The translations under genes were made by a program, and so were the position numbers. A stretch of 32,000 bases of DNA, from positions 1,652,551 to 1,684,550 of the forward strand of contig NZ_CM001976.1 in assembly GCF_000406145.1 (NCBI RefSeq), in the 5' to 3' direction. Under the pieces are notes generated by a model. That model was not told the DNA's origin. It worked only from the letters and a program-made list of their open reading frames with translations, and made no database searches. This document shows positions 28,521 through 31,289 of this stretch, in pieces; within the stretch, counting starts at the first letter, position 1, and every line of letters starts with the position of its first letter. The stretch is from Dickeya dadantii NCPPB 898. Lineage in GTDB: Bacteria; Pseudomonadota; Gammaproteobacteria; Enterobacterales; Enterobacteriaceae.

Positions 28521-31289
28521 ATGCCACTGCATGATACCTCGCGCCGTCGTTTCATCCGTAACGGCGCCTTGCTGGCGCTGTCGGCGCCGCTGTGGAACCG
28601 GGCGCTGGCGGCGCGTATGCCGGGTGCCGGCGTGCCTGCCGATGCGACGCCGACGGTCCGGCTGGACTGGCTGGAACGGCAACCGCCCGCCAGCTTCGGC
28701 GGCGTGACCTGGGGCGTGCCCTGGCCGCCGGGGCGGGTGCCCGCCGACAGCGGGTTCGTACTGGGCGAAGACGGCCAGGCGGATCGCGCGTTGCAGAGCT
28801 GGCCGCTGGCCTACTGGCCGGACGGCTCGCTGAAGTGGTCGGCCCACGCGCTCGGCGCTGAGCGCACGCCCGGTCACGGGCTGTCGCTGCGACCCGTGCC
28901 GGCGGCGGCTGCAATGGGTGACGCCATCGTCACCGAAACGGCGCAACACTGGGTAGTGGATACCGGCCGGCTGCGCTGTCAGGTGCCGAAAAACGGCGAA
29001 CGATTGATCGGTGAACTGTGGCAGGACGGCAGGCTGGCGCTCGGCAACGGTCGTCTGGTGTTGCAGATCCAGTCCGGCGAAGGGACGGACGGGACACTGA
29101 CGGTGGAGGCGTTTCAGGGGCGGGCCACGCAGGTCACGCTGGAGCAGAACGGGCCGCAGCGCGCGGTCATCGCGCTGCGCGGCGTGCATCGCCATGCCGC
29201 GTCGGATGGCGTCACGCGTCTGCCGTTTGTGGTGCGGCTCTATTTCTACGCCGGTTCGGCGTCGCTGCGCCTGCTGCACACCATTATTTATGATGGCGAC
29301 GAGCGGCAGACCTTCATCAAAGGGCTGGGGGTAGCGTTTGATGCGCCGCAGCAGGGCGAGCTGCACGACCGCCACGTGCGCTTTACTTCGGCGCAGGGCG
29401 GGCTGTTTCGGGAAGCGGTACGCGGCCTGACCGGCCTGCGACGCGATCCGGGCGAGGCGGTTGTCGCCGCGCAACTGGCCGGCAAGGCCACGCCGCCGGT
29501 CACGCAGTTTCCCCCGGCGGTGGGCAAGCGGCTGGACTATGTTCCGGCGTTCGGCAGTTACCGGCTGACCCAGCATCACCCCGACGGCTACCAGATCCAC
29601 AAACGCACCGCCGCCGGGCAGGGCTGGCTGCTGTCCGCCACCGGACAGCGGGCCTCCGGCACCGGCTATCTGGGGTCGCCCACCGGTGGGGTAGCGTTCG
29701 GTATCCGCCATTTCTGGCAGAGCTATCCGGCTTGCCTGGAGATTGAGCAGGCACATACCGATCTGGCTACGATCACGCTGTGGCTGTGGTCGCCGTACGC
29801 GGAACCGATGGATCTGCGCTTCTACCACGACGGCATGGGGCAGGCGAGTGTCGAACAGCAGCGTGAGGCGCTGGAGATCACCTACGAGGATTACGAGCCG
29901 GGCTTCGCCACCCCGGAAGGCGTCGCCCGCACCAGCGAACTGTTTCTCGATGTGCTGCCCGCTACGCCGGACAGCGACACGCTGCTGGCGATGGCCCGCC
30001 GCCATCAGCAACCGCCGCTGCTGGTGGCCGACGGCGCCGATTTGCAGCGCGCCGTCGCGTTTGGCCCGGTATGGTCGCCGGCCCCCACGGGGCATAAGCC
30101 GCAACCGGCGCTGGATGCGCAACTGGCGTGGTATTTCGACTTCTATCAGCAGGAGGTGGAACAGCGGAAATGGTACGGCTTCTGGGATTTCGGCGACGTG
30201 ATGCACACCTACGATGGCGATCGCCATGTCTGGCGTTATGACGTGGGCGGCTACGCCTGGGATAACTCGGAGCTGAGCACCGATCTGTGGCTATGGTACT
30301 ACTTTCTGCGTAGCGGCCGGGCGGACGTGTTCCGCATGGCGGAAGCCATGACTCGCCACACCGGCGAGGTGGACGTGCACCATGCCGGCCGCTTCCAGCC
30401 GCTTGGGTCGCGCCACAACGTGCGTCACTGGGGCGACAGCGCCAAGCAGTTGCGCATTTCCACCGTGGCGAACCGGCGTTTTCTGTATTACCTGACCGCG
30501 GATGAACGTATCGGCGAGCTGATGGATGAGCAGGTGGAGGCGCTGCGCACCCTGCAACGGGTGATGCCGGGCCGCAAGATCGGCCAGCCACCGCCGGCCG
30601 ACGAACGGCTGGTCAGCCTCTATTTCGGCACCGACTGGGGCGCGGTGGCGGCAGCCTGGCTGACCGCCTGGGAGCGGCGGCATGATGCGGCGATACGCGA
30701 TCGTCTGCTCAACAGCATGCGGTCGATTGCGGCCCAGCCGCACGGCTTCTTCACCGGGCTGGCGGAGATGGACCCCGACACCGGCGTATTCCGGCCGGTA
30801 GCGGCCGACCAACTCGTTATTTCGCATCTGAGTGCGGTGTTCGGGCTGGCGGAGGTGTGCGCCGAACTGTTGCAGGTGCTGCCGGACCCGGCGTTCGAGC
30901 GCGCCTGGCTGGACTATTGCCGCCTGTACAACGACCCGAAGGCGTTGAGCGCGTTTGTCGGTCAGCCGGTGAAAAAGCGCAATCTGGTGCAGGGCCATGC
31001 CCGGCTGAGCGCCTTTGCCGGCTGGCATCAGCACGACAAGGCGCTGACCCGGCGCGCCTGGCGCGAGTTTGTGGACGGCGAGGGCGGTATTGTCCACCCC
31101 AACCGGCGGGTACGGCTGCTCACGCCGCCCGCGGTGCTCTATCCGGTGAAAGAGGCGGAGATCGATTCGTCGATCGATCAGCGTTCCGGCAGCACCGTCG
31201 TCACCAATCTGTCCACCAATGCGGTGGCGCAGTGGGGGCTGACCGCTATCGCCATGCTGGCGCTGGCGGGAGACGCACCGCCCAAATAG
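28521..31289 (+). CDS. Large Tat-exported protein of unknown function, 922 aa; candidate periplasmic glycan-active enzyme (YetA/PL26-like is unverified)
   Basis: AAGGA at 28509-28513 lies 7 nt before the ATG at 28521. Twin-arginine signal MPLHDTSRRRFIRNGALLALSAPLWNRALA. The frame is uninterrupted with a host-like codon pattern. A conserved-looking block is WYGFWDFGDVMHTYDGDRHVWRYDVGGYAWDNSELSTDLWLWYYFLRSGR. Confidence 0.8.
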   Translation: MPLHDTSRRRFIRNGALLALSAPLWNRALAARMPGAGVPADATPTVRLDWLERQPPASFGGVTWGVPWPPGRVPADSGFVLGEDGQADRALQSWPLAYWPDGSLKWSAHALGAERTPGHGLSLRPVPAAAAMGDAIVTETAQHWVVDTGRLRCQVPKNGERLIGELWQDGRLALGNGRLVLQIQSGEGTDGTLTVEAFQGRATQVTLEQNGPQRAVIALRGVHRHAASDGVTRLPFVVRLYFYAGSASLRLLHTIIYDGDERQTFIKGLGVAFDAPQQGELHDRHVRFTSAQGGLFREAVRGLTGLRRDPGEAVVAAQLAGKATPPVTQFPPAVGKRLDYVPAFGSYRLTQHHPDGYQIHKRTAAGQGWLLSATGQRASGTGYLGSPTGGVAFGIRHFWQSYPACLEIEQAHTDLATITLWLWSPYAEPMDLRFYHDGMGQASVEQQREALEITYEDYEPGFATPEGVARTSELFLDVLPATPDSDTLLAMARRHQQPPLLVADGADLQRAVAFGPVWSPAPTGHKPQPALDAQLAWYFDFYQQEVEQRKWYGFWDFGDVMHTYDGDRHVWRYDVGGYAWDNSELSTDLWLWYYFLRSGRADVFRMAEAMTRHTGEVDVHHAGRFQPLGSRHNVRHWGDSAKQLRISTVANRRFLYYLTADERIGELMDEQVEALRTLQRVMPGRKIGQPPPADERLVSLYFGTDWGAVAAAWLTAWERRHDAAIRDRLLNSMRSIAAQPHGFFTGLAEMDPDTGVFRPVAADQLVISHLSAVFGLAEVCAELLQVLPDPAFERAWLDYCRLYNDPKALSAFVGQPVKKRNLVQGHARLSAFAGWHQHDKALTRRAWREFVDGEGGIVHPNRRVRLLTPPAVLYPVKEAEIDSSIDQRSGSTVVTNLSTNAVAQWGLTAIAMLALAGDAPPK

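Follow-up and report, generated by a model that had tools for sequence, protein, structure and literature searches.

A PL26-family lyase gene, almost certainly rhiF, beside a TonB-dependent receptor gene in Dickeya dadantii NCPPB 898

The window analysed here is a stretch of 32,000 nucleotides (nt) from Dickeya dadantii NCPPB 898, and all coordinates are window positions. Between 28521 and 31289, on the forward strand, it encodes a 922-residue protein of the PL26 (PcRGLX-like) exo-rhamnogalacturonan lyase family. It can almost certainly be equated with rhiF, an assignment based on family and species distribution rather than on a locus tag. Considering the evidence as a whole, the best explanation would be that RhiF is a periplasmic PL26 exo-rhamnogalacturonan lyase fed by the adjacent TonB-dependent receptor, a reading drawn from sequence and modelled structure that we regard as moderately probable. 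An earlier, sequence-only reading of the same DNA had entitled the protein one of unknown function; that title is out of date, as the family is annotated and the Dickeya gene already has a name. The features of the lyase gene are as follows.

28521..31289, forward strand: rhiF coding sequence, 922-residue PL26 (PcRGLX-like) exo-rhamnogalacturonan lyase family protein, stop codon included (open reading frame, Pfam, PDB 5XQ3, Foldseek, dN/dS)
28521..28610, forward strand: predicted twin-arginine signal peptide, residues 1-30, with the SRRRFIR motif at 28539-28559 and predicted cleavage after ALA30 (sequence reading, alignment A1, homologue motif count)
28653..28892, forward strand: N-terminal RIFT-barrel domain PcRGLX_1st, residues 45-124 (Pfam PF19501, E 1.1e-26)
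28929..29996, forward strand: central beta-sandwich domain PcRGLX_2nd, residues 137-492, which holds Tyr455 (codon 29883-29885) (Pfam PF21345, E 6.4e-142)
30012..31277, forward strand: C-terminal alpha/alpha toroid domain PcRGLX_3rd, residues 498-919, which holds the WYGFWDFGDVMHTYD...YAWDNSE...LWLWYYFLRSGR block (Pfam PF21346, E 6.8e-171)

Family, fold and identity of the lyase gene

The sequence-only reading had tentatively guessed at PL26 and exo-rhamnogalacturonan lyase, and the profile and structure checks that it proposed both came out in favour of that guess. All three PcRGLX Pfam domains match far above their gathering cut-offs and together span residues 45-919. A phmmer search of PDB sequences returns PcRGLX (5XQ3, and also 5XQG, 5XQJ and 5XQO) with E 2.2e-219, residues 47-897 of the query aligning with residues 9-894 of the chain; 374 of the 847 aligned residues (44%) are identical. 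An AlphaFold model of the lyase (pLDDT 76, pTM 0.81), searched with Foldseek, superposes on 5XQO and 5XQ3 over ~900 residues with TM scores of 0.82-0.84 and E about 1e-68. Other folds lie far behind, the next best being GH38 mannosidases and LacZ with a TM score of only 0.27. The matched PDB entries carry the title 'PL 26 exo-rhamnogalacturonan lyase'; among NCBIfam models, none matches the lyase. The conserved block that had been quoted around YAWDN.E is present within residues 551-600, with WYGFWDFGDVMHTYD at 551, YAWDNSE at 578 and LWLWYYFLRSGR at 589. The reported absence of a sulfatase C/S-x-P-x-R motif could likewise be confirmed, there being no [CS]xPxR formylglycine motif anywhere in the lyase and no match to a sulfatase family in Pfam or NCBIfam. 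A sulfatase, which we considered for the sulfonate-type transporter context described below, was rejected, since neither motif nor domain is present.

The PDB entries also point to a likely active-site residue. The 5XQO entry carries the description 'complexed with tetrameric substrate', and its chain departs from that of wild-type 5XQ3 at a single position, Y437F in ALEIT(Y/F)EDWEPGF. Tyr437 of the PcRGLX chain corresponds to Tyr455 of the window lyase (ALEITY455EDYEPGF), which is invariant in 75 of 75 aligned sequences. Given that the tyrosine-to-phenylalanine change marks the substrate complex, and given this invariance, we infer that Tyr455 is the probable catalytic residue. To gauge conservation more broadly, 11 gammaproteobacterial sequences were compared with 60 homologues outside their clade, considering columns at least 95% conserved among those 60. 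In 190 of these 207 highly conserved columns all 11 gammaproteobacterial sequences are identical, and a different majority residue is found in only four, two of which are Asp/Glu. Judging by these columns, the active site in the window's clade would seem hardly to have changed.

The gene itself is intact. A six-frame scan yields a single long forward-strand open reading frame from a GTG at 28467 to 31289, within which the ATG at 28521 opens 922 codons followed by a TAG at 31287-31289. We take 28521 to be the best start because M1 is invariant among the homologues in A1, an alignment of 15 sequences spanning Gammaproteobacteria, Betaproteobacteria and Bacteroidota; homologues from all three groups align from this methionine. 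As the sequence-only reading had noted, the start lies close to the end of the receptor gene: the receptor stop codon (TAA) occupies 28508-28510, the intergenic gap is 10 nt (ggatacgccg), and an AGGA Shine-Dalgarno sequence at 28510-28513 overlaps the receptor stop codon, 7 nt 5' of the lyase ATG. A promoter and terminator scan found no terminator-like site between the two genes and, apart from one promoter-like site for tonB, nothing beyond chance; receptor and lyase genes are probably co-transcribed. Compared with its D. fangzhongdai counterpart, the lyase gene has a ratio of nonsynonymous to synonymous substitution rates (dN/dS) of 0.16 and is under purifying selection. Pseudogene status or decay was rejected on the basis of this ratio and of the intact reading frame.

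Identifying the gene is, in itself, routine: it is already known from public databases and from Dickeya reviews. The exact sequence is present in NCBI, and its 90% cluster, which covers D. dadantii, D. solani, D. dianthicola, D. fangzhongdai and D. chrysanthemi, goes under the names 'exo-rhamnogalacturonan lyase family protein' or 'Tat pathway signal sequence domain protein' in NCBI and UniRef. Genus inventories list a single PL26 gene per Dickeya genome, rhiF ('rhamnogalacturonate lyase'), for these same five species plus D. lacustris; they treat it as a predicted accessory pectinase that the D. zeae complex lacks (Hugouvieux-Cotte-Pattat et al. 2023, PMC10319131; bioRxiv 10.1101/568105). Since the five species of the cluster all appear in the inventories, which count one PL26 gene per Dickeya genome, we take the window gene to be, almost certainly, rhiF. 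Within the Pectobacteriaceae, according to the literature, PL26 is restricted to genera that target soft plant tissue.

What retains interest is the predicted activity of a bacterial PL26 protein, its link to SsuA-type transport, and the possible export of a partner protein with it. Our literature search found no description of RhiF's twin-arginine leader, of the receptor/SsuA-like cassette or of its DUF6250 gene, and no relevant paper on DUF6250. No bacterial PL26 enzyme has apparently been characterised, and an assay of RhiF would provide an anchor for annotating thousands of homologues (4244 matches).

Leader peptide, cassette and DUF6250 partner

The N-terminus carries a leader suited to export by the twin-arginine translocation (Tat) pathway. 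It reads M1, PLHDT, S7R8R9R10F11I12R13, NGALLALSAPLW, NR and A28L29A30, with A31 following the predicted cleavage site. The leader fits the S/T-R-R-x-F-L-K consensus; an h-region of moderate hydrophobicity and then an AxA site follow. In A1 both R8 and R9 are invariant. Among the 120 best homologues, 112 have a pair of arginines with two hydrophobic residues in their N-terminal 45 positions, and most of the other eight look like mis-called starts. The twin-arginine signal (SRRRFIR...ALA) that had been picked out from the sequence therefore stands. We found no support for the accompanying suggestion that Tat export implies a cofactor.

The receptor that precedes the lyase gene belongs to a larger set of genes, listed here.

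25075..26112, forward strand: SsuA-like (NMT1 family) periplasmic binding protein, first gene of the cassette (Pfam NMT1; TIGR01728; PDB)
26198..28510, forward strand: TonB-dependent outer-membrane receptor (Plug and TonB_dep_Rec_b-barrel domains; NCBIfam matches generic only)
31449..32000, forward strand: DUF6250 gene, N-terminal 183 codons, running off the window (Pfam PF19763, E 3e-43)
21003..24734, reverse strand: divergent operon of tonB (23718-24734, start uncertain), exbB (23006-23704), exbD (22602-23003) and a fused double SsuC/TauC-like permease of the ATP-binding cassette (ABC) type (21003-22589) (Pfam, NCBIfam)

How far this arrangement extends was surveyed in 80 genome loci fetched with the family profile, in which open reading frames were called, neighbours clustered and recurrent clusters named by Pfam. 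A four-gene core (SsuA-like protein, TonB receptor, lyase, DUF6250) is common to Dickeya, Pectobacterium, Enterobacter, Pseudomonas and Stutzerimonas, and is usually followed by a LysR gene. A gene of the same receptor family lies directly upstream of the lyase gene in the mapped gammaproteobacterial and Oxalobacteraceae loci, with a gap of 0-100 nt (mostly 4-16) where genes were called, and the adjacency was seen in Pectobacterium, Enterobacter, Pseudomonas, Stutzerimonas, Duganella and Pseudoduganella. The binding-protein gene precedes the receptor gene in 10 of 11 aligned gammaproteobacterial loci and in three further loci. Enterobacterales add the divergent tonB-exbB-exbD genes and the fused double SsuC-like permease, some of them an ATPase too; Pectobacterium and Enterobacter have the same divergent arrangement plus the ABC ATPase. 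Stutzerimonas and Pseudomonas sp. StFLB209 keep the binding protein in the cassette without an adjoining ABC permease and have a divergent major facilitator superfamily gene instead. The earlier proposal that the lyase acts on whatever the adjacent receptor imports is supported by this synteny, and such a relationship seems plausible.

In other parts of the family the surroundings are different. Genes for PL11 rhamnogalacturonan lyases (13 loci) and GH42 beta-galactosidases (7 loci), along with GH2, GDSL esterases, DUF2264, SusC-type receptors and LacI regulators, adjoin the lyase gene in Actinomycetota, Verrucomicrobiota, Bacteroidota and a number of Proteobacteria; loci of this kind are typical of rhamnogalacturonan-I utilisation. 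A neighbour-joining tree places the proteobacterial clade of the window as sister to a Bacteroidota clade, several members of which lie in rhamnogalacturonan-type loci; this sister clade also has DUF6250 and includes copies adjoining PL11. In Alteromonas macleodii, a PL26-containing locus goes with growth on rhamnogalacturonan (PMC6972757).

Of 86 sequences searched, comprising the window and 85 loci, 31 have DUF6250 no more than 10 kb from the lyase, usually next to it. In Pectobacterium the two genes overlap as TAATG, and in Oxalobacteraceae the gene after the receptor encodes a lyase::DUF6250 fusion, with DUF6250 at the lyase C-terminus. An AlphaFold model of the D. fangzhongdai DUF6250 protein (pLDDT 89) has a concanavalin/galectin-like sandwich for which the best Foldseek match is 1OQ1 (E 1.5e-8, TM 0.59/0.64), followed by CBM66. 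Note that only this fold search gave a match: compared with PDB sequences, the single sequence returned nothing but spurious antibody matches and the profile returned none. 1OQ1 is YesU, a glycan-binding protein whose gene adjoins the rhamnogalacturonan acetylesterase gene of Bacillus subtilis. The YesU-like fold predicted for DUF6250 is thus an independent link to rhamnogalacturonan, and the sole link to rhamnogalacturonan genes in the gammaproteobacterial clade.

Sec or lipoprotein signals are present on 61 of 92 DUF6250 proteins (from Bacteroidota and others), one protein (P0145) has its own RRSFLRG Tat leader, and ~29 from Enterobacterales and Pseudomonas are without a signal peptide. Because DUF6250 lacks a signal peptide here and forms a fusion with the lyase in Oxalobacteraceae, export together with the lyase is suggested, which makes DUF6250 a candidate Tat hitchhiker on RhiF. 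Hitchhiking cannot have been the original reason for the Tat leader, however, since in Bacteroidota Tat-signal lyases are found together with DUF6250 proteins that have Sec signals.

Several further observations concern the non-coding sequence and the composition of the locus. The spacer between rhiF and the DUF6250 gene measures 159 nt here versus 96 nt in D. fangzhongdai. At 31381-31437 it contains 3.6 copies of a 16-nt tandem repeat, ACATCATCACAATAAA, of which D. fangzhongdai has one degenerate copy, and a GC-rich hairpin, GCCCGCCGCAGCGGGC, lies just upstream of the repeat in both D. dadantii and D. fangzhongdai. In the divergent promoter region between tonB and the binding-protein gene, AAATGCCAT occurs three times (24749-24757, 24842-24850 in inverted orientation, and 24967-24975). 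The first copy overlaps the promoter-like site for tonB; the first two are kept in D. fangzhongdai and none is found in Pectobacterium. These repeats are possible binding sites of a regulator, the adjacent LysR protein being one candidate. The TonB protein (23718-24734, reverse strand) is a dedicated copy with a long Pro/Ala-rich linker, encoded with exbB and exbD; its mechanically called reading frame of 338 residues compares with 297 residues called in D. fangzhongdai, so that the true start is probably internal. The binding protein scores 135 bits with TIGR01728 (SsuA_fam), under the cut-off of that model. Near NCBIfam scores for SaoP and SaoA, obtained with the permease and ATPase, were set aside as uninformative, Sao being a clostridial selenoprotein system from the same broad ABC group. 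G+C content is 67.6% in rhiF, 65-67% in the permease-exbBD block and 50-59% in the acnB region (window 1-4000). This content, the patchy species distribution and the prophage, Mu or insertion sequence (IS) neighbours in other genera point to horizontal acquisition of the cassette. Elsewhere in the window, at 13483-14469 on the reverse strand, there is an open reading frame with a papain-family domain (Peptidase_C1, E 1e-12), a family uncommon in bacteria. Raffinose genes (LacI-type regulator, GH36 melibiase, LacY-type permease; 8701-13330) flank it on one side and a DAO/GNAT/2-hydroxyacid dehydrogenase block on the other.

Proposed mechanism and rival explanations

How might these components work together? 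In the usual soft-rot account of rhamnogalacturonan-I, secreted RhiE cuts the polymer, and RhiT and RhiN import and hydrolyse the unsaturated disaccharide, which leaves the step from oligomer to disaccharide unaccounted for. We envisage that the secreted endolyase RhiE would make rhamnogalacturonan-I oligosaccharides outside the cell and that the adjacent TonB-dependent receptor, energised by the divergently encoded TonB-ExbB-ExbD, would bring them across the outer membrane. RhiF, having reached the periplasm folded via Tat, would then cut rhamnose-(1,4)-galacturonic acid (Rha-(1,4)-GalA) bonds by beta-elimination in exo mode, yielding unsaturated galacturonosyl-rhamnose. This disaccharide would be taken up by the known RhiT/RhiN route, or possibly by the linked SsuA-like protein and ABC permease. 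DUF6250 would serve as a YesU-like lectin-fold subunit, probably glycan-binding, and, lacking a signal, would probably be exported bound to RhiF. Iwai et al. (2015) and Kunishige et al. (2018) reportedly found PcRGLX to be active without divalent cations, to act better on oligomers than on polymer and to yield unsaturated GalA-Rha. Such an oligomer preference and metal independence of the fungal enzyme would fit a periplasmic role and would argue against a cofactor as the reason for Tat export.

If this is true, a periplasmic exo-lyase with its own TonB-dependent receptor fills the gap between oligomer and disaccharide, and Enterobacterales possess a compact analogue of the Bacteroidetes polysaccharide utilisation locus. 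In Enterobacterales and pseudomonads the PL26 lyase is the enzyme at the heart of a four-gene cassette that appears mobile. A more far-reaching reading of this cassette, which we offer only tentatively and consider rather doubtful, is that a small-anion transporter family has been recruited in it for an acidic pectin fragment (or that it targets another anionic plant glycan) and that DUF6250 rides on the Tat signal of RhiF.

A number of observations weigh against the proposal of a periplasmic rhamnogalacturonan lyase. Starting with the protein, our literature search found neither an assay of Dickeya RhiF nor a characterised bacterial PL26 enzyme, and the neighbour-joining tree puts the characterised fungal enzyme in the other half of the family, with Actinomycetota. 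Residue 346 (codon 29556-29558; Asp327 of PcRGLX) is Ser in 11 of 11 gammaproteobacterial lyases and Asp in 58 of 60 others, the sole radical clade-wide change among the 207 columns. As regards export, the 45-residue N-terminus scores 10.8 bits with TIGR01409, against a cut-off of 16.7 (E 0.52), two homologues reach 14.8 and 15.6, and Pfam TAT_signal (PF10518) gives no match, isolated N-termini included. The Tat hidden Markov models are short and weak, so that a sub-threshold score lowers the certainty of Tat export only slightly.

The other adverse observations concern the neighbourhood. The nearest PDB entries to the binding protein are SsuA structures (3UIF, E 3e-36, and 2X26), the permease and the Pectobacterium ATPase are of SsuC/TauC and SsuB type according to NCBIfam, and the SsuA/sulfonate-type transporter family is not known to carry sugars. 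An ABC ATPase gene is absent from both Dickeya sequences. The 740 nt after the permease gene (20263-21003), where Pectobacterium and Enterobacter have their ATPase, hold no reverse-strand reading frame of at least 80 residues, and tblastn detected no ATPase remnant there or elsewhere in the window. In the D. fangzhongdai locus the same search found only a distant 35% match, in a separate methionine-type ABC operon ~8 kb downstream of the lyase gene, so that the transporter of Dickeya has no cognate ATPase. In none of the gammaproteobacterial loci, the window included, is there a pectin-degrading gene or a rhamnose/uronate gene less than 10 kb away from the lyase. A KdgR-box-like pattern has three matches in the window versus 2.2 expected, none of them near the operon. 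Finally, a flavin monooxygenase of NtaA/DmoA type is encoded near the cassette in three Pseudomonas loci (P. cichorii, P. capsici and StFLB209).

Much of this could also be accommodated if fold and chemistry were the same and the substrate were another anionic glycan or glycoside, for example a sulfated or sulfonated uronic-acid/rhamnose compound used as a source of sulfur or carbon, so that the label 'rhamnogalacturonan lyase' would be a family-level over-transfer. An altered, possibly sulfur-bearing, anionic glycan is the main rival substrate, as the gene set looks like one for sulfur scavenging in which the enzyme is a lyase. Binding protein, permease and ATPase can be assigned to the SsuABC/TauABC group, and a LysR regulator is adjacent. 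The Pseudomonas monooxygenases just mentioned fit this picture, as do a SulP transporter gene adjoining a Dyadobacter lyase copy, the methionine-uptake and arylsulfotransferase genes a few kb downstream in D. fangzhongdai, the lack of pectin genes near gammaproteobacterial copies and the Asp-to-Ser change at residue 346. However, the sulfur-related neighbours vary by genus and are possibly coincidental, and there is no sulfatase motif. Moreover, the hosts are pectinolytic plant pathogens, PL26 occurring among Pectobacteriaceae only in the genera that target soft tissue. Because the active site is conserved, with the probable catalytic tyrosine and 190 of 207 highly conserved columns unchanged, and because Bacteroidota sister members with the same DUF6250 partner adjoin PL11 lyases and GDSL esterases in pectin loci, we think a different substrate unlikely.

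Alternatively, RhiF might be a genuine lyase that, once exported by Tat, is anchored on the outer membrane or secreted (for example by the Out type II system) and acts outside the cell, with the receptor importing its products rather than its substrates. In Dickeya the outer membrane is the final location of the Tat substrate PnlH, and in other bacteria type II systems secrete certain Tat substrates; the order of receptor and lyase genes is equally compatible with this scenario, and the lipoprotein signals frequent on Bacteroidota DUF6250 proteins suggest a surface location. Yet a disaccharide would hardly need a TonB-dependent receptor, and the oligomer preference reported for PcRGLX sits poorly with an external site of action. 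In addition, the sequence indicates no anchor, and the leader could be lost through cleavage at a plausible AxA site, all of which leads us to rate surface or extracellular action as quite improbable. Least credible of all, and in our view very improbable, is the notion that the Dickeya cassette is a decaying, horizontally acquired remnant in which RhiF no longer contributes a function. The trace-free loss of the ABC ATPase would be expected of a remnant, as would patchy occurrence among Dickeya species, a G+C content high relative to housekeeping genes, and prophage or IS genes adjoining the cassette in other genera. If the cassette were decaying, though, one would not expect 922 codons intact at a dN/dS of 0.16, a catalytic region with its conservation all kept, and permease, TonB set, receptor and binding protein without a lesion. 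We therefore continue to favour a periplasmic exo-lyase supplied by the neighbouring receptor.

Comparison with known systems

The closest characterised relative is PcRGLX of Penicillium chrysogenum 31B (CAZy PL26, EC 4.2.2.24), with which RhiF has in common its three domains, 44% identity over 847 residues, a TM score of 0.82-0.84, the conserved tyrosine and the signature block WYGF(W/L)D(F/Y)GD...YAWDNSELS. The two differ in that PcRGLX is fungal and its solved chains have no twin-arginine leader, whereas RhiF has one; they lie in opposite halves of the family tree, and Asp327 of PcRGLX is Ser346 in RhiF. The DUF6250 partner and the receptor/transporter cassette are found on the side of RhiF, whose activity is predicted. 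As for the rhiF of the Dickeya inventories, it resembles the window gene in being the only PL26 gene per genome and in occurring in the five species of the 90% cluster. The inventories list a predicted accessory lyase only; Tat leader, cassette and DUF6250 are not described there.

Rhamnogalacturonan-I loci of Bacteroidota, Verrucomicrobiota and Actinomycetota, where PL26 stands beside PL11, GH42, GH2, GDSL esterases and SusC-type receptors, follow the same logic as the window cassette, a TonB-dependent receptor combined with a periplasmic exo-enzyme. Unlike them, the window cassette has no glycan-degrading neighbours, a classical TonB-dependent receptor rather than a SusC/SusD pair, and a sulfonate-type inner-membrane transporter. 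The yes/yet clusters of B. subtilis (YesW/YesX PL11, RhgT, YesU) include YetA, which we take to be a PL26 member, and the YesU fold is the one predicted for the DUF6250 protein of the window. The sulfate-ester (ats/sft) loci of Pseudomonas comprise the AtsR binding protein, the AtsB/AtsC ABC transporter, the SftP TonB receptor and the LysR regulator SftR. They are like the window cassette in combining a NitT/TauT-family binding protein and permease with a TonB-dependent receptor and a LysR regulator, and different in that the enzyme slot of the window holds a PL26 lyase and a lectin-fold protein, without a sulfatase or a sulfatase motif.

Tat hitchhiker pairs, such as the small and large subunits of hydrogenases or DmsA and DmsB, offer a precedent for the proposed relationship between RhiF and DUF6250. 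Here, too, a signal-less partner is encoded beside a Tat-signal protein and, in Pectobacterium (TAATG), translationally coupled to it, and in other lineages the partner has its own export signal or is fused. RhiF and DUF6250 differ from the established pairs in having no known cofactor and in that their complex is a proposed one.

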